Part shown: piece after piece, positions 2,942 to 57,909 of the stretch
How the letters are laid out: the number at the start of each line of letters is the position of its first letter
Position numbering within the stretch: the first letter of the stretch is position 1
Source: an uncultured Gammaproteobacteria bacterium
Lineage (GTDB): Bacteria; Pseudomonadota; Gammaproteobacteria; GCA-002705445; GCA-002716945
NCBI GenBank assembly: GCA_902559355.1
Contig: CACEHM010000005.1
Span: forward strand, 11,755 to 75,754
Reading direction: 5' to 3'
DNA length: 64,000 nt
The notes under the pieces: model-generated
What the model was told of the DNA's origin: nothing
Seen by the model: only the letters and a program-made list of their open reading frames with translations
The model's database searches: none
Position numbers and translations under genes: made by a program

Positions 2942-2961
2942 AAATTAGATTATTCTAATAT
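2942..2961. promoter_or_regulatory. putative ArsR-family operator, AAATTAG-N6-CTAATAT
   Basis: One mismatch to the ATATTAG-N6-CTAATAT palindrome also found at 8747, 34509 and 57890. Confidence 0.4.
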
Positions 2962-3019
2962 TATTATTATTGTTGATTTTATATATTAAAAGAAGATACT
3001 CAGATTAGAGGGGTTTAAA

Positions 3020-3085
3020 ATGGTTATATCGATAATAGCGTTTGTGCTTTTAATGTGGCTATTTTGTTGTGGCTTTAAAAGTTAA
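3020..3085 (+). CDS. putative 21-aa single-TM peptide [21 protein letters not shown]
   Basis: ATG at 3020 with GAGGGG Shine-Dalgarno upstream; hydrophobic; below the ORF-track length cutoff. Confidence 0.45.
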
Positions 3086-3120
3086 AAATAAATAATTCTA
3101 TAAGGAAAGTAGTCTTTAAT

Positions 3121-5061
3121 ATGAGCGTATCTGATATTTATAAATCCAAAGATTGGGTTAAAGATAAAGCACTAATAAATAAAGAAGATTATAAAAAACT
3201 TTATAATCAATCTATTACAGATCCATTATCCTTTTGGGATGAGCAAGGCAAGCGACTCGACTGGTATACGCCTTATACAAAAATTAGAGACTATTCGTAT
3301 GATATAAATAACCTCTACATTAAATGGTATGAAGATGGAGTATTAAATGTATCTTATAACTGTATTGATCGACATATTGAAAAATCTGGTGATAAAGTTG
3401 CAATACTATGGGAAGGGGATGATCCAGCACAAACTAAAAAAATTACTTATAAAGAACTTTTAATAGAAGTATGTAGATTTTCAAATGGATTAAAGTCACT
3501 AGGCATAAACAAAGGCGATAGAGTTACTATTTATATGCCAATGATTCCTGAAGCTGCAGTTGCTATGCTTGCTTGTACTAGGATAGGTGCGATTCATTCC
3601 GTTGTTTTTGGAGGATTTTCTCCTGAAGCATTGGCGGGTAGGTTAGAAGATTGCAATTCTAAATTTATAATTACCTCTGATGAAGGTGTTCGAGGAGGCA
3701 AAATCATTCCATTAAAAAGCAATGTCGATATGGCTATCTCGAAAGTTAAAGATTTTGAAAAATGTATAGTTGTGAAAAGAACAGGAAATGATGTTCCATG
3801 GAATGATAAATATGATTATTGGTACCATGATTTAATAGATAACTCTTCTGATACATTTGAACCAGAAAAAATGTCGGCAGAAGATCCAATGTTTATTTTA
3901 TATACATCTGGATCAACCGGGAAACCCAAAGGTGTTCTTCATACTACTGGAGGATATTTAGTTTATGCATCATTAACTCACCAATATGTTTTTGACTATC
4001 ATGACGATGATATATATTGGTGTACTGCTGATGTAGGTTGGGTGACTGGACACTCTTACATTATCTATGGCCCTTTGTGTAATGGGGCGACCACAGTTAT
4101 GTTCGAGGGAATTCCTAATTATCCGACAGCTAGTAGATTCTGGGAAATTGTAGATAAACATAGAATTAATATTTTATATACTGCACCTACGGCTATTCGT
4201 GCACTAATGTCTGAGGGTAATAAGTTCCTAGAAAATACATCTAGAAAATCTCTTCGAATTTTAGGAAGCGTCGGAGAACCAATAAATCCAGAGGCATGGC
4301 GATGGTACTACGAAGCCGCAGGGAATTCTCAATGCTCCATCGTTGATACTTGGTGGCAAACTGAAACCGGAGGGATATTGATCACTCCACTAGTTGGAGC
4401 AATTGACATGAAACCTGGATCTGCCACTCTCCCTTTCTTTGGAATAAAGCCATCAATTGTTGACAAGGATAATCAAGAAATAGAGGGTCCAGGAGAGGGA
4501 AGTCTTTGTATTGATGCCTCATGGCCCGGTCAAATGAGAACCGTATATGGTGATCATGACAGATTCATTGATACCTACTTTAAACAGTATTTAGGAAGAT
4601 ACTTTTCTGGTGATGGTTGTAGGAGAGACGAAGATGGTTATTACTGGATTACTGGTAGGATGGATGATGTAATAAATGTCTCAGGTCATCGTCTGGGAAC
4701 TGCCGAAGTAGAATCCGCACTTGTTCTCCATCAGGATGTTTCTGAAGCAGCTGTAGTTGGATATCCTCATGATATAAAAGGACAGGGATTATATGCATTC
4801 GTGACTTTGAATAAAGGAACTGAACAGAACGAGCAATTAGAAAATGATTTATTAGCATGGGTCAAAAAAGAAATTGGCTCAATTGCAAAACCTGATTTTA
4901 TACAATTTACGAATGGATTACCTAAGACTAGGTCTGGTAAAATTATGAGGAGAATATTAAGGAAAATATCTACAAACGATTATACTAACTTAGGCGATAC
5001 ATCAACGCTAGCCGATCCTGGCGTAGTCGATGAGCTAATACTTAACAGGAAGAACATATAA
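3121..5061 (+). CDS. acs: acetyl-CoA synthetase
   Basis: [14 protein letters not shown]-binding loop, [22 protein letters not shown]. Confidence 0.97.
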
Positions 5062-5447
5062 TGGTTGATATAGTAAAAAAAAGAGTTATTGACTGGGATA
5101 ATCAGTTACGTAAAGAAAAACATTTCAATGAAAAATTTGGAACAAATTTAACTCCAAGTGAAGTAAAAGAATTGACAGGCTCTTTCAGGAGACTTACTGA
5201 AAAAAGTAAAAGTAAAATCGGTGATGGAACACTAGAGCAATCTGAAGAATTTTATTTGTCTCTTGATTTAATGAAACAGAATCAATATTCACATATTTGT
5301 AAGAATAGAAGCGCAGCATTTTATAAGATAGGGGACGAGCCTGATTCAGATAAGAATAATTCTGAGTATCAGCAAGTATTTAAAAAATGGGATCAAGAGC
5401 TCAAGGACTTCAAAGATAAAAATGATTGGATGAAATTTAATAAATAA
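5061..5447 (+). CDS. hypothetical protein
   Basis: 128-aa ORF coupled to acs (TAATG overlap) and abutting the SRAP gene; no recognised motif. Confidence 0.6.
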   Translation: MVDIVKKRVIDWDNQLRKEKHFNEKFGTNLTPSEVKELTGSFRRLTEKSKSKIGDGTLEQSEEFYLSLDLMKQNQYSHICKNRSAAFYKIGDEPDSDKNNSEYQQVFKKWDQELKDFKDKNDWMKFNK

Positions 5448-5450
5448 TAT

Positions 5451-6029
5451 ATGTGTGGACGTTTCACTTTAACAAATAAAGATAAAGTCAAAAAAAGATT
5501 TGATATCGATTTAGAGCAAAGCTTTAATATTTGTCCAAGTACAGAAATTTTAGTCCTTACCAATAAATTAGAGAATATAAAATGGGGTTATTCTCCTCAT
5601 TGGGCAAAATCTCCGATGAATCTTATCAATGCACGATATGAGACTATTCATGAAAAGCCATCATTTAAAGATGCTAAGCGATGTGTGTTTATTATGGATG
5701 GGTGGTATGAGTGGAAAAGATATTTTGATTGGAAAAGAAGGGAGAACATCAAAGATCCCTATTACCACCACCTGAATAGCAACCTCATATATACTGCAGG
5801 GTTATATAATGAAAGTGGTTGTGTTTGTGTGACGAAAGAGTCTGTCAAGCCAATATCTGATATACATAACAGACAACCCCTTCTACTTGAAGAAGAACAA
5901 ATAGAAAAGTGGTTGGTAGGTGATCATATACTTAAAGATTATGTTTCAGGCAACATACAGATACATAAGGTTTCAACATATGTTAATTCGCCAAGAAATA
6001 ATGACTATAAATGCATTCAACCTATATAG
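5451..6029 (+). CDS. SOS response-associated peptidase (SRAP, YedK/HMCES-like abasic-site processing protein)
   Basis: N-terminal MCGRF, INARYET, GWYEW, IHNRQP, VSTYVNSPRN. Confidence 0.9.
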   Translation: MCGRFTLTNKDKVKKRFDIDLEQSFNICPSTEILVLTNKLENIKWGYSPHWAKSPMNLINARYETIHEKPSFKDAKRCVFIMDGWYEWKRYFDWKRRENIKDPYYHHLNSNLIYTAGLYNESGCVCVTKESVKPISDIHNRQPLLLEEEQIEKWLVGDHILKDYVSGNIQIHKVSTYVNSPRNNDYKCIQPI

Positions 6030-6159
6030 AAATATTATTTAAAAACTTTGAAAAGAAGAATAATAATATAGATGCTATGACATCATAAAGAGGCTGAGCT
6101 TCTGGGTAGCCATAATTCCATAAAACTATGAGAAAGACCCAAATTATGAATACCAACAT

Positions 6160-6477
6160 CTATTGAATTTTGTCTAGTAGGACTGATTTCTTGTTATTGA
6201 ATTCTTCATCAGTAATTATTCCACGATCTTTGAGGTCTGCGAGTTTCTCAATTTGCGATAATGTCTCATCAATACCACTGTATCTTGGTTTATCATTGTT
6301 TGATGAACCCATAAAATCAACATCATCATTAATTAATCTATGAATAAAAGAATTTTCTTTGTCTTCCTGTGACTTCTTAGTATGGCCTATCTTATTATTA
6401 GCTCCTGGCCTTGCTGTATCTTGCGCGATACTATGCAGAGAAAAAATCAAAAAAACGAAAGGTAATAAATATTTCAT
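6160..6477 (-). CDS. exported protein with C-terminal SHOCT domain
   Basis: Signal peptide from MKYLLPF (ATG 6477; track ORF starts 6543); C-terminal IEKLADLKDRGIITDEEFNNKK. Confidence 0.7.
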   Translation of the reverse strand: MKYLLPFVFLIFSLHSIAQDTARPGANNKIGHTKKSQEDKENSFIHRLINDDVDFMGSSNNDKPRYSGIDETLSQIEKLADLKDRGIITDEEFNNKKSVLLDKIQ

Positions 6478-6508
6478 AGGGCCATTATAGTATTTATTTT
6501 TTACAAAA

Positions 6509-7516
6509 TCATTCCATCGACAAATTTTTGCTAAAGAACTCACTAACTTCTTTTAAAGCTTTTTGAGTTGCCTTATGGTTATATTTAACCGTAACGCCTT
6601 TAAATGAACATTTATCAAGAAAATATTCACTTATCTTAGGAGTATTTATTACAACACCTTTCATATTTTCAATTTCACCAGCATTAGTTATGGTTAGCGT
6701 ACAATCATCATTAATTATTTTTAAATTAGGAAGTTCATCAAAAGTCATCCCAAAATACAAAAATGGATTATCAAAACCATGTCTAGCATTTTCCATTGAT
6801 ATAAACTTAATCTTATTATCATCTCTAAAAAACTTTGTATAAATATTTCTACATGCAGCTTCTGGAGTGAGGTCATCATCTGCACCTGTAATCATCAATA
6901 AGGGTGTCTCTGTTACGCTATCACCAGGGAATGTAAAACCACAGTATGGATATAATGCTATTGCTGCTTTAAACCTCTCCTTAGTTGGTAGTAAATCATT
7001 CACAAATTTGAAATGTGATAGAATTGGGCCAACACCACCTTGTGACCATCCCAGGTATCCAACATTATTTATTTTTTCATCTGTTTTTAAAATATCGAGT
7101 GCTGCATATGCATCATTCATAAATGTTAGACCGGATACTTTTGAAAATGTTTTATCATATTTAATTTTTCTGGCTGCGTAATGATCTAATTGAAATACAA
7201 CCAACCCCATCTCTGTAAGAAGATCAACATATTTATCATGATACCTTCTCTTGCCGCCAGAACCATGAGTCATAATAATTGCATTGTAAGTATTTTTTTT
7301 AGTATCTGGGAAATAAAGCTGACCATTAATAACAAGCTTCTTTTTACCGGAATAGTCCAAGTCATAACTGTCAACTGACTCAAAACATATCAGCATATCG
7401 GATATAGCATTAATTGTAGATTTGGGCTTTTGATTCTCACAAGGATCTATTTTAGTCCTTGAGCAAGACGATATGATTACAGCTATCAGCAAAAACAAAA
7501 GGAAGCTTCTATACAT
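6509..7516 (-). CDS. dienelactone hydrolase-family alpha/beta hydrolase, probable lipoprotein
   Basis: Lipobox-like ISSC, HGSGG, GWSQGG nucleophile elbow, YPYC, GADDDLTP, HGFD. Confidence 0.8.
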   Translation of the reverse strand: MYRSFLLFLLIAVIISSCSRTKIDPCENQKPKSTINAISDMLICFESVDSYDLDYSGKKKLVINGQLYFPDTKKNTYNAIIMTHGSGGKRRYHDKYVDLLTEMGLVVFQLDHYAARKIKYDKTFSKVSGLTFMNDAYAALDILKTDEKINNVGYLGWSQGGVGPILSHFKFVNDLLPTKERFKAAIALYPYCGFTFPGDSVTETPLLMITGADDDLTPEAACRNIYTKFFRDDNKIKFISMENARHGFDNPFLYFGMTFDELPNLKIINDDCTLTITNAGEIENMKGVVINTPKISEYFLDKCSFKGVTVKYNHKATQKALKEVSEFFSKNLSME

Positions 7517-7521
7517 AAGTA

Positions 7522-8706: not shown

Positions 8707-8746
8707 TTCGACCACGAGTAATAATAACACTTTATTGCTAGATTTA

Positions 8747-8766
8747 TTATTAGTTTCGGCTAATAT
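8747..8766. promoter_or_regulatory. putative autoregulatory ArsR operator, TTATTAG-N6-CTAATAT
   Basis: Inverted repeat 17 bp upstream of the arsR start codon. Confidence 0.55.
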
Positions 8767-8783
8767 AGGTATATAATAATACT

Positions 8784-9125
8784 ATGGAAAACGAACAAAT
8801 ACAGACCGAAGAGCAAATTGATTATTCTTCTGTAGACCAGCAAAAAGATGTAGAAACAGCATCTCGTTCACTCAAAGCAATGTCTCACCCCCTAAGGTTG
8901 ATGATTCTTTGTAAACTTGGCGAGGGCGAATTTAGCGTACAAGATATTGTTGATAATGTAGGTACATCACAAAGTAACATTTCACAACATCTAGCAATTC
9001 TTAGAGACAAAGGAATATTATCTGCAAGAAAAGACGCTAATAAAGTTTTTTATAAAGTCACTGATTTTAAAACTCTGAAACTAATAGATATGATGAGAGA
9101 AGTTTTCTGTTCTAAGCATAACTAA
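8784..9125 (+). CDS. ArsR/SmtB-family regulator, BigR/SqrR/HlyU-like dithiol (persulfide-sensor) type
   Basis: LKAMSHPLRLMILC, SQSNISQHLAILR HTH, second Cys in C-terminal VFC. Confidence 0.85.
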   Translation: MENEQIQTEEQIDYSSVDQQKDVETASRSLKAMSHPLRLMILCKLGEGEFSVQDIVDNVGTSQSNISQHLAILRDKGILSARKDANKVFYKVTDFKTLKLIDMMREVFCSKHN

Positions 9126-9133
9126 CCCATACA

Positions 9134-9541
9134 ATGGGTAATTCAATGGAATTTGTTTCAAATCACCCAGTCTTATCTGTAGCCTTATTTATTTTTATTT
9201 ATTTAATTATTTCTTATGAAATTAAAAATCTCACAAAGAAATATAAATCTATTAACTGCAATGACTTAGTTCAAAAAATCAATGAAGAAAATATCATTAT
9301 TCTAGATACAAGGGAAAAATCTGATTTCAAAAAAGGTCATATCTCTAATGCTACTAACTATGAAATATCTTCGGATAAAAAATTAGAACATACAGAAGTG
9401 GTAGTCTATGATAAAGATGAAATGGCAAGCGCTAGCAGTGCAGAAAAAATATCAAAAAATAATGTTACAAAAGTTATATACCTAGAAGGAGGCATTCAAT
9501 CTTGGATCGAAAATAATTTACCATTAGTGGAGAAGACATGA
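9134..9541 (+). CDS. membrane-anchored rhodanese-like protein (YibN-like)
   Basis: N-terminal TM, ILDTRE..F..GHI, LEGGIQSW; active-site position reads VVYD (no Cys). Confidence 0.8.
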   Translation: MGNSMEFVSNHPVLSVALFIFIYLIISYEIKNLTKKYKSINCNDLVQKINEENIIILDTREKSDFKKGHISNATNYEISSDKKLEHTEVVVYDKDEMASASSAEKISKNNVTKVIYLEGGIQSWIENNLPLVEKT

Positions 9542-9975
9542 CAGATAATAAAGTCCAATTTAATATACAAAGAATTTATTTAAAAGACTTATCGTTTGAA
9601 TCACCGATGACCCCAGATGTATTCACAAGTATGTCATCAGCCCCAAAAGTAGGCTTTAACTTTGAATCAAATATCAATAATATTTCTGATGACACACATG
9701 AACTAACATTAACGTTTAATGTTAAAGCTGAAGTTGAAAGTGAAACTCTGTACCTAGTTGAATTAAAACAATGTGGTGTATTTACAATATCAATTGATGA
9801 TGAAGCTGTTAAAAAGAGATTTTTAAATGTTCACTGTGCTGAAATCGTATATCCTTATGCAAGAGAAAATATTTCTAATACAATACTAAAAGGCGGTTTT
9901 CCTCCACTATTTTTGTCACCTATCGATTTCCATACAATTTACCAAAATGAATTAGAAAAAAGAAAAGATAATTAA
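9538..9975 (+). CDS. secB: protein-export chaperone SecB
   Basis: IQRIYLKDLSFESP, YPYARE, GGFPPLFLSPIDF. Confidence 0.95.
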   Translation: MTDNKVQFNIQRIYLKDLSFESPMTPDVFTSMSSAPKVGFNFESNINNISDDTHELTLTFNVKAEVESETLYLVELKQCGVFTISIDDEAVKKRFLNVHCAEIVYPYARENISNTILKGGFPPLFLSPIDFHTIYQNELEKRKDN

Positions 9976-10973
9976 TGACATCTAACTTTAGAGTGCTAGG
10001 GGCTGGAGTTTGGGGACTAGCTTTTTCTGACTATCTATTAAAACTCGGACATAATGTAGAAATCTTTTGTAGAGATACTAATTTAAGTAATAAGAATATT
10101 TCAGGATTAAAATTATCTCATGTATCTGACAAGAACTTAGTGTCTTTGGATACTCTAAATGCTCAAAAATCTAATGGTGAAATTAATATTATTGCAGTCA
10201 ACAGCAAAGGCTTTGGTGAACTTTTAAATGAACATAAAAGTTATTTCAGCACTCTCCATGAATTAGTGTCGCTGACAAAGGGTCTTGACCACATCAGTGG
10301 TAAATACTTCAGTGATTATGTATTTGATATGTTTAGTAATATAAAAAGGTATGGTCTTATATCGGGCCCTTCCTTTGCAAAAGACTTATGTCATGAAAAG
10401 AAAATTAGTGTGTCATTTGCATCTATAGATAATAAACTTTCATATTTAATGGTTGAAGCTACTAAAAGTTCACATTTTGAAATGATTCCTACTACGTATA
10501 TTTACCATATTGAAATAGCTGGGATTATAAAAAATATTGCTGCTATTTTATGCGGAATGGCTGATAAATATTCTAGTAAAGGAATATATTCAAATATGAT
10601 TATTAAAAAAGCTTGTCAGGAAACTTGGCAAAGAGGAATTGAAATATTTAATAAAAATAATAAAAATATTGATCATTTAAATAAAGATAGAAACTCTATT
10701 ATTACATCACCTGGATGCATAGGGGATATGATTTTAACTTGTAAGCAGAATGTATCTCGGAATTATCAGTTTGGAAAATTAATAGCAGACCCAAGTATAA
10801 GTATTGAAGACGCTACGACCATGGTCGGTACAGTCGAAGGTTATGACTGTTGTCTAACTTTAGTAGATAGAACTCAATCAGCTCAAGGTGAATTAACAAG
10901 TTTGCTCTATAAAATTATTAAAGCTGAAAACACGCAGCGCGAGTCCTTACTTAAAGATTTTCTACAAGCCTAA
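9975..10973 (+). CDS. gpsA: NAD(P)H-dependent glycerol-3-phosphate dehydrogenase
   Basis: GAGVWG, TKG, SGPSFA, KNIAAI, GDMILTC, SRNYQFG, VEG; follows secB. Confidence 0.88.
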   Translation: MTSNFRVLGAGVWGLAFSDYLLKLGHNVEIFCRDTNLSNKNISGLKLSHVSDKNLVSLDTLNAQKSNGEINIIAVNSKGFGELLNEHKSYFSTLHELVSLTKGLDHISGKYFSDYVFDMFSNIKRYGLISGPSFAKDLCHEKKISVSFASIDNKLSYLMVEATKSSHFEMIPTTYIYHIEIAGIIKNIAAILCGMADKYSSKGIYSNMIIKKACQETWQRGIEIFNKNNKNIDHLNKDRNSIITSPGCIGDMILTCKQNVSRNYQFGKLIADPSISIEDATTMVGTVEGYDCCLTLVDRTQSAQGELTSLLYKIIKAENTQRESLLKDFLQA

Positions 10974-13437: not shown

Positions 13438-13443
13438 ATATTA

Positions 13444-30714: not shown

Positions 30715-32793
30715 TTATACTTTCTTGATTTGAGCTAGGACTGTATAAAAGATTGGACCATCACCCATATCTGTTAAGTCTTGAGAGTTAAGTGCATTGG
30801 CATTGAGACCGTTTTTGACCAGTGAACCCCTATATTGTTTTTGTGTAGAGGCCACACCCTCAAGCATTGAATCTTTAATGATTGCATGTGCAAAGGTTTC
30901 ACCCACATCATTAAAAACTTTACATAGATCGCCATCTTTAATTTTTCTTTTTTTTGCATCAATAGAGGATATTTCAATAGTAGGTCGTGATGCCATATTT
31001 CTTAATCTTTCAACTGGTACAAATGAATTTCCAATAAATTGATGTGTTGCAGGGCTTAATATTTGAATAGGGTATTTTTTTTTAATTTCTGACTTTTTGA
31101 ATTCTTCAGTGTAAGAAGGATAAGCACCTAGCCCAATCTTTTTTGTATCTTCAGAATAAATTTGTATTTTTTTATCTTTAGTGGGCCACCCCGTTTTTAA
31201 ATAATTGCGCCTTGGATTATTTACATCCCCTTTGACCCAACCATTTTTTTTGAGTTTTTCATATGTCACACCTTTGAACAAAGGATTATGCTTAGGATCA
31301 ATCATATTTTTTATCATACTTTCATCAGATTCTCTGAAGCACTTATCTTTGTATCCCATGTGTTTTGCCAAATCTCTAAATAGATCCTGATTTGATTTAC
31401 TCTCACCTAATGGCTTTATAGCTTGTTGAGTAAGGCTAAAATAATAATGACCATATGGTGCATGAAGATCTGTGTGTTCAAGTTGAGTATCGGCAGGCAA
31501 TACCACATCAGCATACATGCAGCTATCAGTCCAAAAAGTATCATGAACAACTGTAAATAAATCTTTTCTTTTTAACCCATCCCTAACGTTACTGCTATCA
31601 GGTGTACAATTTGCAATATCAGAATTCCAAACAAACAAATGTTTAATTGGAGGGTCAAGATTCTTATCATTTAGTGCTTTTCCAATTTGGACCATGTTAA
31701 TACTTCTAGGTTTTTTGTTTTCTAAAAGGTCAGGCCTTTGCAATTTTTGTAAATCAACATTCCACATCTCTTCAATAGAACCCACAAAACATCCCGACTC
31801 TTTATGTTTCCATGCACCTGTTATTGCCGGCAATATCATAATTGTTCTTGTCATCATGCCACCATTTCTGTGTCTATTGAGCCCGTAGTTTGGCCTTATA
31901 TAACTTCTTTTTGCTTTTGCGTATTCGTATGCTAGTTTTTTGATATCAGTCTGTTTGAGACCTGTTATCTTTGCTACTTTACTAAGTGTATATTTTGGTA
32001 GCTCATTTTTAATAAAGTCTTCAGAACCCGAAGTATGTTTTTTTAAAAAAGCTTTATCGTGCAGATTATTTTTTACAATTTCATTCATCATGCCAAGTGC
32101 CAATGCAGAATCTGTTCCAGGCTTAGGCTGTAGATGCCAGTGGCACATTACACTTGTTCTGGTCTCTCTTGGATCTATACAAACTATTTTTGCTCCATTT
32201 TTTTTTGCTTCTTCTAAAAAAGGAACCATATGCACGTGTGTTGAAGCCACATTCGTACCCCATAAAATTATGTAATCATTTTTAGGTACTTCATCTATTG
32301 CAGGACCACATGCTGCGCCGTATGTATAAATACCAGCTGTTGATGCTGCTGCAATGCAAATTGTTCTTCCAAGTCTCGCAGCACCAACTTTATTCCAAAA
32401 TCTTTCAGACATACCCCAATATCCAAGCATACCGAGTGTCCCAGAATATGAATAAGGCTGAATAGAATCACCCCCGTACTCTTTTAGATTTTTATTAATA
32501 TTTTGACTAATAAGTTTTAATACATAGTCCCATGAAACTTTTTTAAATTTACCTTTTTTACCTTTTGGTCCAACTCGAACATGAGGGTACAAAATTCTAT
32601 TTTTGTTATAGACAAGATCTAAGTAGTGATTAACTTTATTACAAAGAAAACCTTTTGTAATTGGGTGCTCTTCGTTACCTCTTAATTTAACTGCCTTACC
32701 AGTTGATTTATCGACAGTGACTACCAATGAACAAGTATCAGGACAGTCATGAGGACAGGTAACATTTATATCTTTGAATTTAGGCTGACGCAT
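30715..32793 (-). CDS. cytoplasmic molybdopterin (bis-MGD) oxidoreductase, uncharacterised MopB_3/YyaE-like clade
   Basis: CPHDCPDTC..GFLCNK Fe-S motif, YSYSGTLG, RTIC, PGTDSALALG, ADVVLPA, C-terminal molydop-binding domain; no Tat signal. Confidence 0.88.
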   Translation of the reverse strand: MRQPKFKDINVTCPHDCPDTCSLVVTVDKSTGKAVKLRGNEEHPITKGFLCNKVNHYLDLVYNKNRILYPHVRVGPKGKKGKFKKVSWDYVLKLISQNINKNLKEYGGDSIQPYSYSGTLGMLGYWGMSERFWNKVGAARLGRTICIAAASTAGIYTYGAACGPAIDEVPKNDYIILWGTNVASTHVHMVPFLEEAKKNGAKIVCIDPRETRTSVMCHWHLQPKPGTDSALALGMMNEIVKNNLHDKAFLKKHTSGSEDFIKNELPKYTLSKVAKITGLKQTDIKKLAYEYAKAKRSYIRPNYGLNRHRNGGMMTRTIMILPAITGAWKHKESGCFVGSIEEMWNVDLQKLQRPDLLENKKPRSINMVQIGKALNDKNLDPPIKHLFVWNSDIANCTPDSSNVRDGLKRKDLFTVVHDTFWTDSCMYADVVLPADTQLEHTDLHAPYGHYYFSLTQQAIKPLGESKSNQDLFRDLAKHMGYKDKCFRESDESMIKNMIDPKHNPLFKGVTYEKLKKNGWVKGDVNNPRRNYLKTGWPTKDKKIQIYSEDTKKIGLGAYPSYTEEFKKSEIKKKYPIQILSPATHQFIGNSFVPVERLRNMASRPTIEISSIDAKKRKIKDGDLCKVFNDVGETFAHAIIKDSMLEGVASTQKQYRGSLVKNGLNANALNSQDLTDMGDGPIFYTVLAQIKKV

Positions 32794-34420
32794 TTATTTT
32801 ACTAATTTTAGCTAATGAAATTGCGCCAGTAGGACAGGCTTTTTCGCACTCACCACATCTAACGCATACCTTAGGATCAATATATAAGAGTCCATGATAG
32901 ATCCCATGTGATTTGCCAGGCTCTATTTTTTTTAATGAAACCTCACCATTATCATCAATACTTTTTGATGAAAGTTCTTTGATACATTCATGGACGGGCC
33001 TAACAAGTAAACATTCATCACACAAAACACATAAGTCATTATTTATCGCAAATTGATAATGACACAAGTAGCATCTTGATGATTCTTTTTTGCTTTCTAG
33101 TTTGTTATATCCAAGTTCCACCTCTGCTGTAAATGTTCTTTTTGGCAGATCTTTTAATCTCATATCTGTGAGCGGAATATAATTATCTTTGAGTGTTCTT
33201 TTTGTTGAATTTGTACTTTCTAGAGTATATCTTTCGCTCAGAACATTTCGTTTCATTAAGTACTTATCAACATCAATTGCAGTTTTTTTTGCATCTCCGA
33301 TAGCATTAATAAGCGTGGTTGCACCTAATTTGTAGTCACCCGCAAAGAAAATATTTTCACTTTTTCTGGCTGAAAACTGCTGACTCTGACCTATAGCTAA
33401 AATTATATGATCTGTTCTTATTTTAAATTTACTTCGTGGCACATCCTCTAGCTTTCCATTTTTAATATTATTTTGAGTTTTTGCTAATTCAAGATATTTT
33501 AGTTTACCTTTTTCAGTTATCAATTTATTTGGACGAGCACGAAATATCATTTTACCCTTTTCGTTTACTAATTCTTCAAGCTCGCCAGGGAGTATTTCTA
33601 GATCTCCTTGCTCTCTTCTATAAAAAGTCCTCACAGATTTAGCGCCTAACCTGAGAGCAGTACGAGCACAATCCATTGAGGTATATCCTCCCCCTATAAC
33701 TATTACATTCTTGCCAACATAATGATTGTTATTCTCATTGACGCGTAATAAAAAATCTAAACCATCTTCAACATTTGGATTATCACTAAAAACCTTATTC
33801 AAAATATTAGGTTTTAATGTTCCCATTGCGCATATCACTGCATCATACTTTTCAGATAATTTATGTATCTCAGCAGAGGAAGATATTGATTTATTTAGTT
33901 CAACTTTTATACCAAGATTTGTAATTTGTTTTATTTCTTTTTCAATTAATTCCCTTGGAAGTCTAAAAATTGGTATACCTTGATTGAGCATTCCTCCTAG
34001 CGAACTATGTTTTTCATAAAGAGTAACGTTATGGCCAAATCTTTTTAGTTCTGCTGATGCAGCCAGTCCAGCAACTCCACCGCCGATAACAAGAATATTT
34101 TTTCCTGTGCCTTTTTGCTTATTTTTTAATCTGACCTTGTTAGATGAAGAATATTTCCCCGCAGCTCTTTTTGAAAAACATATTGATACAGATTCTCCAT
34201 TTTCATTTTCCCCATGCCTACAATTATCCTCGCATGGTCTGGAACATACTCTACCTAAAATTTCAGGGAAGAAATTATCGTTAAAATTAATTTCATAGGC
34301 TTCGTTAAAATTGTTATTGTATATTGCTTCAAGATATCCTGGGATATCAGTATCTGCAGGACATGAGCTTCTACAAGGCACGCTGTTTTTATACAATTGT
34401 TTAAGTTGATTTTTCCCCAT
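32780..34420 (-). CDS. GltD/DsrL-like FAD/NADPH oxidoreductase with C-terminal ferredoxin
   Basis: CRSSCP..GRVCSRPCEDNC, GGGVAG, GGGYTSMD, YRR, C-terminal CVLCDEC and CVRCGECEKACP; ATG 34420 after GGGGAG. Confidence 0.85.
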   Translation of the reverse strand: MGKNQLKQLYKNSVPCRSSCPADTDIPGYLEAIYNNNFNEAYEINFNDNFFPEILGRVCSRPCEDNCRHGENENGESVSICFSKRAAGKYSSSNKVRLKNKQKGTGKNILVIGGGVAGLAASAELKRFGHNVTLYEKHSSLGGMLNQGIPIFRLPRELIEKEIKQITNLGIKVELNKSISSSAEIHKLSEKYDAVICAMGTLKPNILNKVFSDNPNVEDGLDFLLRVNENNNHYVGKNVIVIGGGYTSMDCARTALRLGAKSVRTFYRREQGDLEILPGELEELVNEKGKMIFRARPNKLITEKGKLKYLELAKTQNNIKNGKLEDVPRSKFKIRTDHIILAIGQSQQFSARKSENIFFAGDYKLGATTLINAIGDAKKTAIDVDKYLMKRNVLSERYTLESTNSTKRTLKDNYIPLTDMRLKDLPKRTFTAEVELGYNKLESKKESSRCYLCHYQFAINNDLCVLCDECLLVRPVHECIKELSSKSIDDNGEVSLKKIEPGKSHGIYHGLLYIDPKVCVRCGECEKACPTGAISLAKISKINASA

Positions 34421-34507
34421 TGAGCTCCCCAATACAAATTTAGCAAAAAAAATAATTTCTCGCCAGTATTGATACAATACATCACTCTATTCAGCCTTGT
34501 TTTCTTC

Positions 34508-34529
34508 TATATTAGTAAATACTAATATA
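34508..34529. promoter_or_regulatory. perfect 10-2-10 palindrome TATATTAGTA-AA-TACTAATATA (putative ArsR operator)
   Basis: In the divergent promoter between the GltD-like and DUF1326 genes. Confidence 0.65.
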
Positions 34530-34594: not shown

Positions 34595-35197
34595 ATGAGT
34601 TGGAGTTTAGAAGGCAATTACGCAGAAAATTGTAATTGCGATATCATGTGTCCCTGCTTATATCTGCAAACACCTACAGAAGGTTTTTGTGAAGCAATGT
34701 TAGTTTGGGACATAAAAAAAGGGCATCTTAATGATGTAAAACTTGATGGACTTAAAGTTTCTATCTGGTTACATGCACCAGGCCCACAATTAACTGAAGG
34801 CGGATTTAAAATTGCATTGTATATTGATGAAAATGCTTCAGATGAACAAGCAACTGCACTAGAAGAACTTTACGGCGGAAAACATGGCGGCCACTTAGGA
34901 GTCATTGCTAGTCTTGTAGGTGAGGTAATGGGCGTTAAAAAAGCAGCAATCACGTGCGATATCTCAGGGAATAAAAAAACACTTAAAGTCGCAGGTGCTG
35001 GCGAGTGGGATATGGATGCTGTAGAAGATGGTAATGGTAATGTTGCTAAGTGCGAATATCATCCGTTAGCTATCAATCCTGGTTTCCCAGTTGAGGTGAG
35101 TAAAACAAATAAACAGTCTTATACTGATTTTGGACAAAATTGGAGTCCTAAACCAGACAGAGTTGGTCTATCAGGACCGTTCTCTTACGCACCGTAA
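34595..35197 (+). CDS. DUF1326 family protein (Cys-rich, putative metal-binding)
   Basis: W.L.G.Y.ENCNCDIMCPC...PTEGFC, IKKG....VKLDGL, LYIDE.A..EQ..AL. Confidence 0.85.
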   Translation: MSWSLEGNYAENCNCDIMCPCLYLQTPTEGFCEAMLVWDIKKGHLNDVKLDGLKVSIWLHAPGPQLTEGGFKIALYIDENASDEQATALEELYGGKHGGHLGVIASLVGEVMGVKKAAITCDISGNKKTLKVAGAGEWDMDAVEDGNGNVAKCEYHPLAINPGFPVEVSKTNKQSYTDFGQNWSPKPDRVGLSGPFSYAP

Positions 35198-48482: not shown

Positions 48483-48524
48483 GAAAATAATAATTATTAT
48501 CTCTTGCAAATGAGAATCATTCTC
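48483..48524. promoter_or_regulatory. two Fur boxes
   Basis: GAAAATAATAATTATTATC (48483-48501) and GCAAATGAGAATCATTCTC (48506-48524) versus consensus GATAATGATAATCATTATC. Confidence 0.8.
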
Positions 48525-48564
48525 AATATAATACTCCCAATTAATTTAAATTAATGGGAAAAAT

Positions 48565-50754: not shown

Positions 50755-50792
50755 TAAAAATAAATTTTATATCGTTCTCCGATGATATGAAT

Positions 50793-50825
50793 GAGTCTGG
50801 CCGGATTCCCTGCGGCCAGACTTTT
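50793..50825 (+). terminator. intrinsic terminator
   Basis: AGTCTGGCCG/CGGCCAGACT stem followed by Ts. Confidence 0.7.
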
Positions 50826-50924
50826 GATTGAAGAGATGCTCGTTTCCTTATTTCCCTATAATAATGAGTATCTTCTTCTTTCAATTCTACGAACTTTTTG
50901 TTAATTTATATAAGGGGTATATAA

Positions 50925-51320
50925 ATCAATAATTTATTCAAAATATTTTTAGTTATATTTGTAGCAATACAACCATTGCATAGCTACACAACTATCAATC
51001 TATCTAATCCTGATGACAATAACGGGTTTCAGTATTTACATGCTGAATTATGTGGTACTAAATATTCTGGTTCCATTTCACACACTAAAAAGATTTCTGA
51101 TCTACTGGATAAAATCAATGCAACTATACTAAGTGAAATGGCTGCAGACTGTGTCTGTTGTGAATCTTTAGATATTTCATCCCTTGATTTCTTTAATTTA
51201 ACATCTAATGAGTTTTTACTATCTAGAGTTACATTAACTTTAGATAAGAATTTTTACGCTCCTAACGTAAAAAAGTTAATACCATATACAAAACAAGTCA
51301 GAGCGCCTCCAATCGTTTAG
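50925..51320 (+). CDS. DUF2946/CruR-like exported regulatory protein with a C-terminal RAPP arrest motif
   Basis: Frame open from ATC 50925 (AAGGGG SD) giving a signal peptide; ELCG, CVCC, ends VRAPPIV; directly upstream of an OprC-like receptor (track ORF 50976..51320). Confidence 0.75.
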   Translation: MNNLFKIFLVIFVAIQPLHSYTTINLSNPDDNNGFQYLHAELCGTKYSGSISHTKKISDLLDKINATILSEMAADCVCCESLDISSLDFFNLTSNEFLLSRVTLTLDKNFYAPNVKKLIPYTKQVRAPPIV

Positions 51321-51359
51321 TAATTTTTTAATTAATCAACGATTAATCTGGAGGACAAT

Positions 51360-53354: not shown

Positions 53355-53366
53355 ATCTGAAAAATT

Positions 53367-53398
53367 TAGTCTAACAGGGAGAAATCTCTGTTAGACTA
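53367..53398. terminator. long stem-loop after the copper receptor
   Basis: TAGTCTAACAGGGA-GAAA-TCTCTGTTAGACTA. Confidence 0.6.
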
Positions 53399-53423
53399 TT
53401 GCTTTAAAAACTAAAATAACAAT

Positions 53424-54050
53424 ATGGAATTTGCATCACTACTAGTTAAAGGCGGCCCTGTCGTATATATTTTGTTAGGACTATCTGTCTATGTATTGTC
53501 TATTGTGATTTACAAATTACATATACTTTTCAAAGTCAATTTCTTTAGTTCCGATGTCACTCATAATAGCGTTAAAATGTGGCTTAATAATAATAAAGAA
53601 GAAGCATATACCGATATATCAAAAGATACACATCCTCAAAAAGAAGTCGTCTCATTTACTATGTACCATTTACTTAAAAATAATATTAATCAAGATAAAG
53701 AGCGATATCTTAGAGAAGAGGTATCGAGGTTAAGCCAAGAAAGATTAGAATATTATGATTCAAATCTAGACACTTTAAAAGTGATTGCTATGGTCGCTCC
53801 TTTGCTCGGATTATTAGGAACAGTATTTGGAATGATAGATGCATTTCAACAAATGGAAATGGCAGGTAATAATATCAATCCTTCTACTTTATCTGGCGGT
53901 ATTTGGGAGGCATTGCTGACAACTGCAGTTGGTTTATCAGTAGCTATTCCTACTGTATTGTTTGAAAGTTACTTTAGGGCAACTAACGAAAAGCTAAAAA
54001 TTAATATAGAACATTCTGTGACCAAGCTTTTGACAGCACACATGAATTAA
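53424..54050 (+). CDS. exbB: MotA/TolQ/ExbB proton channel
   Basis: APLLGLLGTVFGMI, LSGGIWEALLTTAVGL..AIP. Confidence 0.9.
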   Translation: MEFASLLVKGGPVVYILLGLSVYVLSIVIYKLHILFKVNFFSSDVTHNSVKMWLNNNKEEAYTDISKDTHPQKEVVSFTMYHLLKNNINQDKERYLREEVSRLSQERLEYYDSNLDTLKVIAMVAPLLGLLGTVFGMIDAFQQMEMAGNNINPSTLSGGIWEALLTTAVGLSVAIPTVLFESYFRATNEKLKINIEHSVTKLLTAHMN

Positions 54051-54496
54051 TTACAACATCCTTTGTTAAATTTTTTCAGTCTCCAATAGTTATAAGGCCA
54101 AGGTGTTAAGAAACCTGCAAGTAGCATCAAAGGCATTACCATAAGATTTATTTTTGCACCCCCTGTTACTAAATAATCAACTAAGTTCATAGCTATTTCC
54201 ATGCTAACCATAGAAATAAGACTCATTCCAATCGCTGTTCTAAACGCTGCTTTTAAATCCATTTGTTTTAACAAAATTATAGTTTCTAAGATGATACTGG
54301 TTAGTATTCCATTGGTCATAGCTAGTAGCATAATTGAAAGTGTACTCCATGGGATTTGATGTACCTGAAAATAGTATATGGTACCCATGTCACCAATACT
54401 GCAACCTATCAAACACCACATGGTATTATAGGCAGACTGTTTCCATGTATGATTACATTCCCAATCAATTGTTCTATCAAATACTGTTAAAATCAT
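54047..54496 (-). CDS. DUF4396 family membrane protein
   Basis: TMWCLIGCSIGD, MSLISMVSME, GFLTPWPYNYW. Confidence 0.8.
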   Translation of the reverse strand: MILTVFDRTIDWECNHTWKQSAYNTMWCLIGCSIGDMGTIYYFQVHQIPWSTLSIMLLAMTNGILTSIILETIILLKQMDLKAAFRTAIGMSLISMVSMEIAMNLVDYLVTGGAKINLMVMPLMLLAGFLTPWPYNYWRLKKFNKGCCN

Positions 54497-54795
54497 AGTT
54501 CAATACAAATGTTATTACCTTCGATGATTGTTGGATATGTTTTTATTGGTTCATCAGCAGGTTCGTTGAGTGCCTTACCAGTTTCTAGATCAAAGTAGCT
54601 TCCATGTAGTGAGCACTTGATAGTTTTGTCTTTTAAGCATCCAAGAATTAATTCAGAGTTTTCATGGCTGCACATATTATCAACCACAAAGTACTCCTCA
54701 TTCACTTTAGCAACAAGGTATGAATGTTTTTCATGAATAATTTCTAACATATTATTTTCAGAAAAAGCATTAGTTGAGCATAATGTAACAATCAT
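54493..54795 (-). CDS. Rieske [2Fe-2S] ferredoxin
   Basis: CSH...CSLHGSYFDL.TG. Confidence 0.9.
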   Translation of the reverse strand: MIVTLCSTNAFSENNMLEIIHEKHSYLVAKVNEEYFVVDNMCSHENSELILGCLKDKTIKCSLHGSYFDLETGKALNEPADEPIKTYPTIIEGNNICIEL

Positions 54796-55898
54796 GATTT
54801 CATTCGTTTTAGTGCTGAGCCACTATCAATAACTTTTAATACCTCTTTGGAACATTCTTTAATATCGTTGCCTGTCATCCTCTGAAGTATAATCGAGGCC
54901 CCTAGTTGTATACACGATTTCATAGCTCCGTTTTTACCAGATAGAGCTTCTTGTCCAGATTTTACTGTTGCCTTGGCAATGTCTGTGGCTGATACTTTTG
55001 ATTCAATTTTATCTTTAGTATCTTTTCTCACTATACTATCTGGAATATCAACAGCCCTTGATTCATCATTAATTTGCAAGTCTTCTGGCTTAACCTCATA
55101 CATCTTATCTTCTTCACTAGGCTTATCATAATAATGGACTTTACCTATTTGTCTAAGAGATGGAATAATTCCACCTTCTGTGCCTCTTATTACACTTGCA
55201 GAGTGAAATGCTGCATTTCTAGATAATTCTAAATAAATTGGCGGATAAGGTTTGTGAACAAAGCCTGTAAAAAATGCGTCATGTTTAGAACTGATTGGCT
55301 TAACGAGAACTTCTACTGTAGTGATAACTGGTCTTTTAATAATTTTTTTCCTAAGGTTCATTAAGTTGTGAAGTTTAGGATTAAAAATAGATTGATCAGC
55401 GTAAGCCCACCCAATATTTTGATCTTCTAATCGAGCTGCAATTTCCTCATGTGAATACTCACAATTATAATTAAGCTCTTTAAGAGTGAGATGATGAGTA
55501 CAGCCGTATTTTGGACCAACAGATAAAACTCCATGAGAGATTATTGGATATCCTAATTCTGCAAGGACAGGTAATAAAAAAATTGATGAAGGTAGGTTTC
55601 TAGAAAAGCCATCATATGGATCAGCTATATTAATTAAATTGTCGGTAGTTATATTCACAGAATGGGTTGTTTCAATAATTGCATCATGAACTCCTAGATT
55701 TTCGTCCATGGTTTCTCTTTTCATTCTTAGGGCAATAAGAAAAATTGCAGCTTGTACAGGATCAATTTCATCATTAAGAATATCCAACATCGTCTGCTTA
55801 GCTTCTTCTCTTGAAATATTTTTACTAAGCTCAGGACCTGTAGCTATTCTTTGAATAACAGACTTCATATTTTCATTTGGGCTTAATTTATTATTCAT
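54792..55898 (-). CDS. anthranilate phosphoribosyltransferase-like (TrpD/YbiB-fold) protein
   Basis: IATGPELSK, FLIALRMKRET, ADPYDG, GPKYG, GFVHKPY, RGTEG; canonical TrpD GTGGD absent. Confidence 0.75.
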   Translation of the reverse strand: MNNKLSPNENMKSVIQRIATGPELSKNISREEAKQTMLDILNDEIDPVQAAIFLIALRMKRETMDENLGVHDAIIETTHSVNITTDNLINIADPYDGFSRNLPSSIFLLPVLAELGYPIISHGVLSVGPKYGCTHHLTLKELNYNCEYSHEEIAARLEDQNIGWAYADQSIFNPKLHNLMNLRKKIIKRPVITTVEVLVKPISSKHDAFFTGFVHKPYPPIYLELSRNAAFHSASVIRGTEGGIIPSLRQIGKVHYYDKPSEEDKMYEVKPEDLQINDESRAVDIPDSIVRKDTKDKIESKVSATDIAKATVKSGQEALSGKNGAMKSCIQLGASIILQRMTGNDIKECSKEVLKVIDSGSALKRMKS

Positions 55899-56494
55899 TT
55901 AAAAACTATCCAAGTTGTTGCAATATATTTAGAACCTTTTTTAAGTGTAACACCTCGATGTTCATGGGTCCAAAATGGAGGAAATACTACTAACTTACCC
56001 TCTTCAGGTTTAACTTTGACTTTTTGATGTAAAAATTCAGTTTCTCCACCAGGGCCTTCTACATCATTTAGATACCATATAGCGACGAGTTGCCTATCAC
56101 TCATTTGGTGACTCCCAGTGTCTACATGCCAGTGAAAATATTCTCCAACATCTGTTCTTTGGATGGCATATCCAATATCTTTGAATTTCCCATTAAAATA
56201 ATCATATTCTTTTTTTATTTTAGATAGAGCTTTCGATAAGCTTACAAAAAATAATTCATCAATATCTTTCCATGAATCTTTACCACTGATAACCATATCA
56301 GTAGATTTTTTTACTGTATCATTTTCCTCAAAGTTAGGACCAACTCTACCTCGATAATGATCATCTTTAGATTCCTCGAATCTTTCAATTATTTCCTTAC
56401 ACTTTTGTGATGGAATTTCATTATCAAATTCAAAGATAAAACTTCCTGGCGAGCTTTCTATAAGTCTCTTTTCTATTTTTATTTCGTTAGCCAT
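55895..56494 (-). CDS. 2OG-Fe(II) oxygenase (prolyl-hydroxylase-like)
   Basis: WHVD, WYLNDV..GGETEF, FPPFWTHEHRG, KYIATTW. Confidence 0.88.
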   Translation of the reverse strand: MANEIKIEKRLIESSPGSFIFEFDNEIPSQKCKEIIERFEESKDDHYRGRVGPNFEENDTVKKSTDMVISGKDSWKDIDELFFVSLSKALSKIKKEYDYFNGKFKDIGYAIQRTDVGEYFHWHVDTGSHQMSDRQLVAIWYLNDVEGPGGETEFLHQKVKVKPEEGKLVVFPPFWTHEHRGVTLKKGSKYIATTWIVFK

Positions 56495-56534
56495 AATATT
56501 TATATTACACAGTAAATGTTATCATCTGAATACT

Positions 56535-57098
56535 ATGGCAATAAGAATTAAAAGCAAGTGGTCTAAAACAGTTAAAAGAAGTAAAACTCCTGAAGATTTT
56601 GGAAGCGCTCTGTCTTATATTTCATGGAGATTATCTCTTGATAAAGCAAAGACACTGCATGGAGAAGATTTCGAATATGAGAATGATCATCAAAGAGTAT
56701 CGGTCATAGTCGAATATATGTCTTTCCAAGTACACCTCGTAGATAGACTACTATATGAGGATAAAGCTGATAATGATTTTAGAGGTGAAGTCATGAATTC
56801 TCTCGGCAAGCAATCTTCAAGAATTATGCAAGAAAACTGTGAGGACTTGTTTGGGCCAGGTGATTATAAAAAGGGATATATTAATACTCTCAATCTGAGA
56901 TCTACAGAATATTCTGAATTTGAGTTTTCGAGAAAGGGTAGTAATTATTCACTCTATAGGCACTTGTCAAAAAAATGTCAGGATGTGATGGGATACAGTC
57001 AAACTAATAAATGGGTAATGGATCAGATAATAGATATTGATTCTGTCGAGATATTAAAAAAGATTTTAGAAGTTTACGATTCGGTCACTAAAACTTAA
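56535..57098 (+). CDS. hypothetical protein within the sulfur-oxidation accessory cluster
   Basis: 187-aa ORF, MAIRIKSKW N-terminus; recalled as typical of sulfur-oxidiser dsr neighbourhoods, not verified. Confidence 0.65.
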   Translation: MAIRIKSKWSKTVKRSKTPEDFGSALSYISWRLSLDKAKTLHGEDFEYENDHQRVSVIVEYMSFQVHLVDRLLYEDKADNDFRGEVMNSLGKQSSRIMQENCEDLFGPGDYKKGYINTLNLRSTEYSEFEFSRKGSNYSLYRHLSKKCQDVMGYSQTNKWVMDQIIDIDSVEILKKILEVYDSVTKT

Positions 57099-57099
57099 T

Positions 57100-57294
57100 T
57101 TAGCCTTTGTGCTGATCAACGCTATCGAAGTTATTATTTTTACCATCTTCATAACCAGCTTCATAAGCATCAGTTAGGCGTTGTTCTTCAACTTCAGGAG
57201 CTCCCTGATAGCCTTCTTGCCAACCCAGAATATATTGTTCGCTAGCATTCATCTCTTCAAGCTCTGTTACTTTATCAAAGTACTCTTGGTTCAT
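57100..57294 (-). CDS. Alvin_2107-like sulfur-globule oxidation protein
   Basis: YILGWQEGY..P..EEQRLTDAYEAGYEDG motif (family recognised from memory). Confidence 0.7.
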   Translation of the reverse strand: MNQEYFDKVTELEEMNASEQYILGWQEGYQGAPEVEEQRLTDAYEAGYEDGKNNNFDSVDQHKG

Positions 57295-57527
57295 TATGTT
57301 CTTATAGACCCCTTAATTTTATGCGCAATGTCCACTAACCTATTAGCAAGTTTTTCATGCTCTTCTTTATACTCTTTTAGTACACCTTTAGGATTCTGAT
57401 GTAAATCTTTTTCAGTTACACCTTTCTCTCTTTCCAAGTCCATAAACCGTTTTTGAATATCCAAAAGTCTTGCAATTATTTGTTTTCTTTCTTCTAACAA
57501 TTCTTTTTCATTTGTAGCGTCAGTCAT
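57294..57527 (-). CDS. small helical hypothetical protein
   Basis: 77 aa, stop/start coupled to both neighbours. Confidence 0.7.
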   Translation of the reverse strand: MTDATNEKELLEERKQIIARLLDIQKRFMDLEREKGVTEKDLHQNPKGVLKEYKEEHEKLANRLVDIAHKIKGSIRT

Positions 57528-57865
57528 TAATATCCACCTTTTCTTCTGCTTTCCGGTAAGCCGCCAATTCTGCCAGCTTGCTTATCCGGTTTCCCTGGAA
57601 ACAGATCAAAAAGTGTTTTTGTATCTATTTTCTCACCCCACATTTTACCAAGATCTTTTACCATGTTTCTTAAATTCGGTTGGTTTTCTTTATTGTTAAT
57701 GAACTCATCTCTTAAGTAGTTAATAACGTCCCAGTGTCGCTGGCTTAGCTCTATGCTCTCTTGTTCAGCAATCACTTTAGCGACATCCTCATTCCAGTCT
57801 TCTAAATTAGTCAAAAAACCGGTTTCTGTAGTTGGTATTTCTTTACCATCAACTTCAACTTTCAT
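57527..57865 (-). CDS. DsrC/TusE-family protein without C-terminal cysteines (RspA-like)
   Basis: GFLTNLEDWNE, HWDVINYLR, LFPG, GLP; ends ESRRKGGY; no Cys in the protein. Confidence 0.85.
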   Translation of the reverse strand: MKVEVDGKEIPTTETGFLTNLEDWNEDVAKVIAEQESIELSQRHWDVINYLRDEFINNKENQPNLRNMVKDLGKMWGEKIDTKTLFDLFPGKPDKQAGRIGGLPESRRKGGY

Positions 57866-57889
57866 TCAAAACCCCTTGTTTTTAAATCA

Positions 57890-57909
57890 ATATTAAAAAA
57901 TTCTAATAT
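57890..57909. promoter_or_regulatory. putative ArsR operator, ATATTAA-N6-CTAATAT
   Basis: One mismatch to the shared palindrome; 24 bp upstream of the Cys-less dsrC paralog. Confidence 0.5.

Follow-up and report, generated by a model that had tools for sequence, protein, structure and literature searches.

A conserved inverted repeat is a candidate operator of a two-cysteine ArsR-family repressor in a small-genome sulfur-oxidising gammaproteobacterium

We have analysed a stretch of 64,000 nucleotides (nt), hereafter the window, from an uncultured Gammaproteobacteria bacterium (contig C5:11755-75754, CACEHM010000005.1, of assembly GCA_902559355.1), focusing on a short inverted repeat, ATATTAG-N6-CTAATAT, and on an ArsR-family regulator encoded in the same window. 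The repeat is a genuine, enriched element, conserved at orthologous promoters and distributed among genomes together with the regulator, whose two cysteines align with the sensing pair of known repressors. The explanation that we favour, and regard as probable on the sequence evidence, is that this two-cysteine ArsR repressor (8784-9125), which would sense sulfane sulfur, has the 20-bp inverted repeat WWATTAG-N6-CTAATAT as its operator. From these data we infer that the protein binds the repeat, that it acts as a repressor and not as an activator, and to which signal it responds, persulfide being suggested by the homology of the cysteines and by sulfur-related targets in other genomes. The host genome (1.04 Mb in 18 contigs, 32% guanine plus cytosine (GC), 93% complete) carries an oxidative-type dsr cluster, dsrABEFHC, at 59807-63592 in the window, as well as soxB and aprA elsewhere, and the host is therefore a small-genome sulfur-oxidising gammaproteobacterium.

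The window contains four copies of the repeat with at most one mismatch, every one of them between open reading frames (ORFs) and at the coordinates given by an earlier sequence-only reading of this DNA: those at 2942-2961, 8747-8766 and 57890-57909 have one mismatch each, and that at 34509-34528 is exact. The description of the exact copy as a perfect 22-bp palindrome (34508-34529) was incorrect, as 20 of the 22 positions are self-complementary and the symmetry is broken by a central AA. Dinucleotide shuffles of the window led us to expect 0.07 sites, and none of 100 shuffles reached four. Allowing two mismatches revealed no extra site in the window, while four of 100 shuffles then reached four, and the signal therefore resides in the near-perfect sites.

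In order to compare intergenic with coding DNA across the genome, we used a simple longest-ORF gene model, in which 1109 ORFs cover 95.4% of the genome and the uncovered 48,150 nt (4.6%) are taken as intergenic (GC 30.2%, against 31.9% in coding DNA). The genome has 12 sites with at most one mismatch, seven of them in this intergenic 4.6% (binomial P 3e-7). With a second-order Markov model fitted solely to intergenic sequence, 0.22 intergenic sites are expected, and none of 60 simulations reached seven, so that the scan against a composition-matched background proposed by the sequence-only reading did find enrichment. We also enumerated all 7-mer inverted repeats at gaps 0-12. ATATTAG-N6-CTAATAT had seven intergenic and five coding matches, the runner-up at gap 6 had four intergenic matches, and the one repeat with more intergenic matches was AATATTA at gap 1, which is all A/T (eight intergenic, 17 coding), leaving our motif at the top among repeats containing G or C. 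A position weight matrix (PWM), trained by script on 39 distinct conserved sites of which the weakest scored 11.5 bits, gave 15 matches of at least 14 bits in this genome, nine of them intergenic. Furthermore, 31 genomes of the same family, belonging to six genera (g1-g6), hold 203 motif sites, against 52 for a control palindrome consisting of the same pattern read backwards and therefore identical in composition. The shuffles, the 7-mer enumeration, the reversed palindrome and the intergenic Markov simulation together led us to reject a composition artefact. Four of the seven intergenic sites lie in the window, which is 6% of the genome, and the motif was therefore first chosen after the fact; neither the genome-wide and family tests nor the co-occurrence test depend on that choice.

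The proposed binder of the motif is a protein of 113 amino acids (8784-9125, + strand) that belongs to the ArsR/SmtB winged-helix family (Pfam HTH_5, E 3e-13). Its closest solved relative is BigR from Xylella (PDB 3pqj, E 1.8e-21), followed by SqrR (E 2.5e-15), HlyU and YgaV, all of which are among the top eight distinct PDB matches. Cys43, in helix alpha-2 (RLxILC), and Cys109, near the C-terminus, fall in the same alignment columns as the cysteine pairs of BigR, SqrR and HlyU, in agreement with the two-cysteine pattern that had been noted from the sequence alone. Both residues are present in 22 of 22 same-family orthologs; a distant homolog (L029) lacks the second. Among the best 80 of 593 confirmed matches in named organisms, orthologs with 66-81% identity occur in Chromatium, Allochromatium, Thiocystis, Thiothrix, Ectothiorhodospira, Thiodiazotropha, Thiobacillus, Sulfuriferula, Gallionella and Hydrogenophilus.

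The site at 8747-8766, TTATTAG-N6-CTAATAT, lies 17 nt upstream of the ATG of the regulator gene itself, and all 22 same-family orthologs, from six genera, have TTATTAG-N6-CTAATAT 37-50 nt before the ATG. Among 15 distinct upstream regions, identity is 99-100% in the half-sites, 83% in the spacer and 71% in the left flank. The regulator thus has an inverted repeat at its own promoter, as do members of the BigR/SqrR/YgaV/HlyU group. BigR is described as binding an AT-rich palindrome at the promoter of its own operon. Reading by eye reveals a TATAAT hexamer at 8772-8777, ending 6 nt short of the ATG, and no recognisable Shine-Dalgarno sequence; the regulator mRNA may therefore be leaderless. A promoter scan called no + strand promoter at this site, the TATAAT hexamer at 8772-8777 included, and found one - strand promoter whose -10 element (8767-8762) overlaps the right half-site.

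Downstream, on the + strand, Pfam matches identify a membrane-anchored rhodanese-like protein without the catalytic cysteine (9134-9541), secB (9538-9975) and gpsA (9975-10973), which probably form one operon with the regulator gene. The order ArsR-rhodanese-(thioredoxin)-secB-gpsA, divergent from gpmI, recurs in other families of the class. The loop of the rhodanese-like protein reads YDKDEMAS here, whereas it reads YCRSGN in other-family orthologs, and loss of the catalytic cysteine is common to all 20 full-length family copies that we read, from six genera. A literature search found no publication on an ArsR-rhodanese-secB arrangement in sulfur oxidisers.

Conservation in related genomes, which the sequence-only reading had proposed as a check, took the form of phylogenetic footprints in the upstream DNA of orthologs, spanning as many as six genera. 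The exact copy at 34509-34528, with the highest PWM score of the genome (23.5 bits), separates a gene for a DUF1326 protein with a CxCxxxCPC motif (34595-35197, + strand, Pfam PF07040), a candidate target, from a divergent operon encoding, by Pfam and NCBIfam, a GltD-like Fe-S flavoprotein (32780-34477, - strand) and a molybdopterin oxidoreductase (30715-32793, - strand), both possible co-targets. A site with at most two mismatches is found 86-102 nt upstream in 16 of 26 DUF1326 ortholog loci (g1 8/8, g2 5/8, g5 1/1, g6 3/4, g3 0/2, g4 0/3), one of the g2 loci having only 36 nt of upstream DNA. The divergent arrangement of flavoprotein and DUF1326 genes recurs in g1, g3, g4 and g5 and is absent from the g2 and g6 loci examined. 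A second DUF1326 paralog of this genome, with a Tat-like signal (SKRGFLKG; contig C6:31731-32500), has a weaker palindrome of its own upstream (12.4 PWM bits), and the motif precedes this paralog in five of five genomes from five other genera. No solved relative of DUF1326 was found by sequence search.

At 57890-57909 the putative operator covers the -10/start region of the promoter of a candidate target on the - strand (57527-57865), which encodes a DsrC/TusE/RspA-family protein (Pfam DsrC, TIGR03342) without either C-terminal cysteine; the sequence ends in RRKGGY and contains no cysteine. The promoter reads TGGACT-17-TAGAAT on the - strand, and its -10 element (57905-57900) lies under the operator. 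Sites with at most two mismatches are present in 24 of 26 ortholog loci, and upstream regions read by eye showed the left half, ATATTAG, unchanged in all 25 loci with upstream DNA, from six genera. In the same neighbourhood, a stand-alone Cas6-like gene (57944-58624; PF09559, TIGR02807 Cas6/Cmx6) is flanked by a TauD-like gene and the gene for the Cys-less DsrC-like protein; the order of Cas6-like gene, DsrC-like gene and an ORF of 74 to 105 amino acids recurs in the four other-genus loci annotated, the TauD-like gene being confirmed in one.

The link between motif and regulator extends beyond the family. Three other-family homologs (41, 36 and 35% identity by alignment) have the motif upstream, and in one of them two exact, overlapping copies precede a pair of genes encoding ArsR and an SQR-like Pyr_redox_2 protein. 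In five genomes of other families that encode an ortholog of 67-73% identity, 19 motif sites stand against four control sites, whereas five without an ortholog match contain three against four. Of those 19 sites, 18 are intergenic, with a local GC of 34-61%, and they adjoin genes for SulP, YeeE-like Sulf_transp, DUF4395-rhodanese, sulfur-globule protein, SLAC1/TehA and DUF302. Within the named-organism set, 16 of the best 80 loci have a site (at most two mismatches) within 600 nt, and an exact site lies beside an ortholog in DNA of 63% GC. In betaproteobacterial loci from Thiobacillaceae and Hydrogenophilus (L271, L291, L293 and L301) the putative operator is found between the ArsR ortholog and an outer-membrane efflux (OEP) gene, whose position is taken by an HlyD-type gene in a further betaproteobacterial locus (L297). 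The proposal of one BigR/SqrR-type repressor with a shared operator, its own promoter included, thus finds support in motif enrichment, phylogenetic footprints, the 35-41% identical homologs and co-occurrence.

In five genomes from five other genera of the family we counted 37 motif sites against 11 control sites. Thirteen of the 37 lie at ArsR (four), the first DUF1326 gene (two), the Tat-signal DUF1326 paralog (five) and the DsrC-like gene (two), and 12 others are intergenic: between queC and a Sulf_transp/YeeE-like gene (four genera), between L31 and an FA_desaturase gene (two), between queA and a divergent gene of 147 amino acids (two), between SCO1 and a divergent FA_desaturase gene (one), between mgtE and nrdA (one) and at two other places. 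In the genome analysed here, sites at desaturase genes are found at C15:536 and C3:47031, the site between mgtE and nrdA has two mismatches, and another two-mismatch site accompanies an azoreductase-peroxiredoxin pair. The ArsR operon and both DUF1326 genes would therefore be targets conserved across genera, along with the genes for the Cys-less DsrC-like protein, two desaturase-like proteins and a YeeE-like transporter. The list of target loci in the sequence-only reading accordingly held in part and is extended by the second DUF1326 gene, the two desaturase-like genes and, in other genera, the YeeE-like transporter gene.

Two further sites are limited to the genus of the host. The site at 2942-2961 (one mismatch) lies upstream of acs (3121-5061), with an ORF for a hydrophobic peptide of 21 amino acids, preceded by a strong AGAGGGG Shine-Dalgarno sequence, in between (3020-3085). 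A site with at most two mismatches is kept in six of seven same-genus acs loci, where the spacer varies and the Shine-Dalgarno sequence of the peptide ORF is largely retained as AGAGGGG variants, and in none of 21 loci from other genera, in which acs is only 46-49% identical and lies at a different location. The inclusion of acs in the regulon, as originally suggested, stands for this genus, and we reject it as a general target. Directly upstream of this site, at 137-2937, are genes for phytoene synthase, lycopene cyclase and beta-carotene 15,15'-dioxygenase, the latter for retinal synthesis, suggesting rhodopsin-based light use in a dsr-bearing sulfur oxidiser. The second genus-limited site is in the hemA/TPR divergent promoter region (C1:220763), where it is present with at most two mismatches in nine of nine same-genus loci and in none of 19 other-genus loci, which keep only a TATAAT-type promoter; hemA was dropped as a regulon member. 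The hemA promoter shows genus-specific palindromes around a conserved TATAAT, ATAATAG-N6-CTATTAT being exact in three same-genus loci, and palindromes with other spacings occur in other genera.

The mechanism that we propose is that the reduced ArsR dimer occupies the repeat, which lies partly over the core promoter or directly next to it, and keeps transcription low. The repressed set would include its own operon (ArsR, the Cys-less rhodanese, secB and gpsA), the two DUF1326 genes with the divergent flavoprotein/molybdopterin oxidoreductase operon, and the gene for the Cys-less DsrC-like protein next to the dsr cluster. Two genes for membrane desaturase/AlkB-like proteins, of which one diverges from SCO1, would also belong to it, as would the operon of the peptide and acs in this genus. 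As sulfur is oxidised, accumulating sulfane sulfur in the form of persulfide or polysulfide would then bridge Cys43 and Cys109 by a di- to tetrasulfide, and the bridged dimer would have a lower affinity for DNA, leading to derepression. Release of the repressor when the cysteine pair is bridged by sulfane sulfur is described for SqrR, YgaV and SoxR (bioRxiv 10.1101/2020.03.22.001966; PMC9774250; PMC10451225).

Several observations weigh against a sulfane-sulfur repressor acting through this operator. The bare pattern yields false positives, as five of its 12 sites in this genome are inside ORFs, as are 12 of the 24 sites outside the four principal targets in the five genomes of other genera (two of those ORFs being short and doubtful), and related genomes do not count as independent samples. 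Of the orthologs retrieved from outside the family, the five closest (L023-L027), which have 67-73% identity and an unchanged recognition helix, lack any site with at most two mismatches in loci of about 3.3 kb, which speaks against autoregulation through such a site there; since, moreover, only 16 of the best 80 loci have one, autoregulation is not universal, or the sites are elsewhere. The best NCBIfam model of the regulator, NF040642 ('sulfite-sensing transcriptional repressor BigR'), scores 89.3 bits against a cut-off of 155 bits, and the protein is therefore BigR/SqrR-like and not BigR itself. The candidate regulon of this genome lacks classic sulfide-detoxification genes, its only sulfur-handling targets being the Cys-less rhodanese and the Cys-less DsrC-like gene. 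A search with one SQR-like query found no SQR, a weak negative in a genome that is 93% complete. The YeeE-like transporter had to be rejected as a target in this genome, as the spacer between queC and the Sulf_transp gene has no site of at least 10 PWM bits and has decayed, and among the 45 top-scoring sites listed, none of at least 10 PWM bits is close to soxB or aprA. Finally, many candidate targets are linked to oxygen or redox chemistry: DUF1326, the desaturases, SCO1, nrdA and the azoreductase-peroxiredoxin pair.

Because the target list is partly oxygen- and metal-linked, the main rival explanation keeps the same repressor and operator and has the protein respond more broadly, to thiol oxidants in general or to oxygen and redox stress (H2O2, disulfide stress, sulfite or a haem-mediated signal). 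The regulon would then serve to protect oxygen-dependent metal enzymes or to take their place. Such a role would be in keeping with SCO1, class Ia nrdA, the two di-iron desaturase/AlkB-like genes and the azoreductase-peroxiredoxin pair, as well as with the peroxidase activity reported for DmdF, a Roseobacter relative of DUF1326 (PMC12992908). YgaV of Escherichia coli binds the katG promoter and haem (PMC9774250), and the NCBIfam name for BigR refers to sulfite. Against this, the ortholog group was recovered from sulfur oxidisers, the candidate targets outside the family have to do with sulfur (genes for SulP, a YeeE-like protein, rhodanese and a sulfur-globule protein, and an SQR-like gene), and SqrR, which has the same cysteine pair, is reported to react with persulfides only (bioRxiv 10.1101/2020.03.22.001966). 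We consider a general redox signal less likely than sulfane sulfur.

A bolder extension of the sulfane-sulfur reading would be that a single, highly conserved ortholog group (66-81% identity), ranging from Chromatiaceae and Thiothrix to Thiobacillus and Gallionella, is a common sulfane-sulfur master switch of sulfur-oxidising proteobacteria with the shared operator ATATTAG-N6-CTAATAT, and that in this family it heads a two-step cascade, in which ArsR derepresses the Cys-less DsrC-like (RspA-type) protein and either that protein or low-affinity ArsR then acts on an element in the dsrA promoter. This element (59734-59762, + strand) consists of 29 bp that begin with one ATATTAG half-site and are invariant in 21 of 21 loci with upstream DNA, from six genera; it sits in the spacer of a TAGACA-16-TAAGAT promoter. 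The back-to-back half-sites described for the dsrA promoter are both present here (CTAATAG at 59725-59731, ATATTAG at 59734-59740), but only ATATTAG is conserved, CTAATAG being found only here and in a 100%-identical relative. As a canonical full site the dsrA promoter was rejected, as its best reading has three mismatches and 8-10 PWM bits, under the weakest training site. The element also contains GATAAT-like repeats, which we take to resemble a Fur box, and could be the site of another regulator. Such a cascade is speculative; if it exists, it would be the long-sought switch of the oxidative dsr genes.

It is improbable that the palindrome is bound by another transcription factor and stands before the ArsR gene by coincidence. 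The missing sites at all five closest out-of-family orthologs would agree with this idea, but the motif precedes 22 of 22 family orthologs and 35-41% identical homologs in other families, exceeds the control only in genomes that encode an ortholog, lies beside the ortholog in both beta- and gammaproteobacteria at up to 63% GC, and matches the SqrR sqr box in its geometry. Least credible of all is that there is no operator, only AT-rich promoter elements such as TATAAT-like hexamers picked post hoc in an AT-rich genome: the half-site does resemble -10 hexamers, the hemA 'site' is a conserved TATAAT promoter outside the genus, dsrA keeps one half-site and four of the seven intergenic sites were in the window first read, but this is contradicted for the motif overall by the composition-matched intergenic simulations, by a reversed palindrome four times rarer across the 31 genomes, by half-sites that stay fixed while spacers vary, and by the intergenic position of 18 of 19 sites at 34-61% GC and the exact site beside an ortholog at 63% GC, so that it is possible only for single sites, namely hemA and the dsrA half-site.

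Little is understood of substrate sensing and dsr switching in sulfur oxidisers, and the abundant marine lineages with small genomes are not yet amenable to manipulation. A repressor sensing sulfane sulfur through the operator described here would be a testable candidate for coupling gene expression to reactive sulfur in small marine sulfur oxidisers. Our analysis offers a precise operator consensus and a candidate regulator shared at 66-81% identity with the cultivable Allochromatium, Thiothrix and Thiobacillus, and the hypothesis can therefore be tested in a tractable relative. It also yields a short list of conserved targets, mostly of unknown function (DUF1326, the Cys-less DsrC, AlkB-like desaturases and the Cys-less rhodanese), and the regulon would give a functional context to these orphan families.

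Among known systems, SqrR of Rhodobacter capsulatus (PDB 6o8k-6o8o) has the same fold, an aligned sensing cysteine pair and a similar operator geometry, the sqr box ATTC-N8-GAAT corresponding to ATTA-N8-TAAT here (PMC9774250; bioRxiv 10.1101/2020.03.22.001966), and it controls many scattered genes, judging from the title of a PNAS 2017 reference listed in PMC7315123. Nevertheless, the match to SqrR is moderate, the fourth base of the half-site differs and G/C flank the spacer here; moreover, our gene heads a rhodanese-secB-gpsA cluster, with no sqr found using one query. BigR of Xylella fastidiosa and Agrobacterium (PDB 3pqj, 3pqk) is the best solved relative, with an aligned cysteine pair and the best-scoring NCBIfam model, and differs in that our protein scores under the equivalog cut-off and no operon with blh or an ETHE1-type dioxygenase lies downstream. 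We found no publication tying BigR to ATATTAG or describing this operator, the original BigR papers being outside the reach of the search; candidate BigR operators of Acinetobacter are mentioned in PMC7315123.

The YgaV-YgaP system of E. coli (PDB 3cuo) resembles ours in gene order, a two-cysteine ArsR regulator followed by a membrane-anchored rhodanese, and YgaV represses its own gene from a site overlapping the promoter, losing DNA binding after sulfide treatment (PMC9774250). In our case the rhodanese lacks the catalytic cysteine in all six genera, secB and gpsA lie downstream and the regulon is different. SoxR and sHdrR of Hyphomicrobium denitrificans are sulfane-sulfur-responsive two-cysteine ArsR repressors of sulfur oxidation, released by polysulfide and acting at several target promoters (PMC10451225); they are alphaproteobacterial and encoded inside sox/shdr clusters. 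What is new here is the operator consensus, the content of the regulon and the wide, sulfur-oxidiser-centred distribution of the ArsR ortholog group. Apart from the BigR equivalog score, the regulator has the sequence features expected of the group, and it probably works like SqrR, BigR and YgaV.

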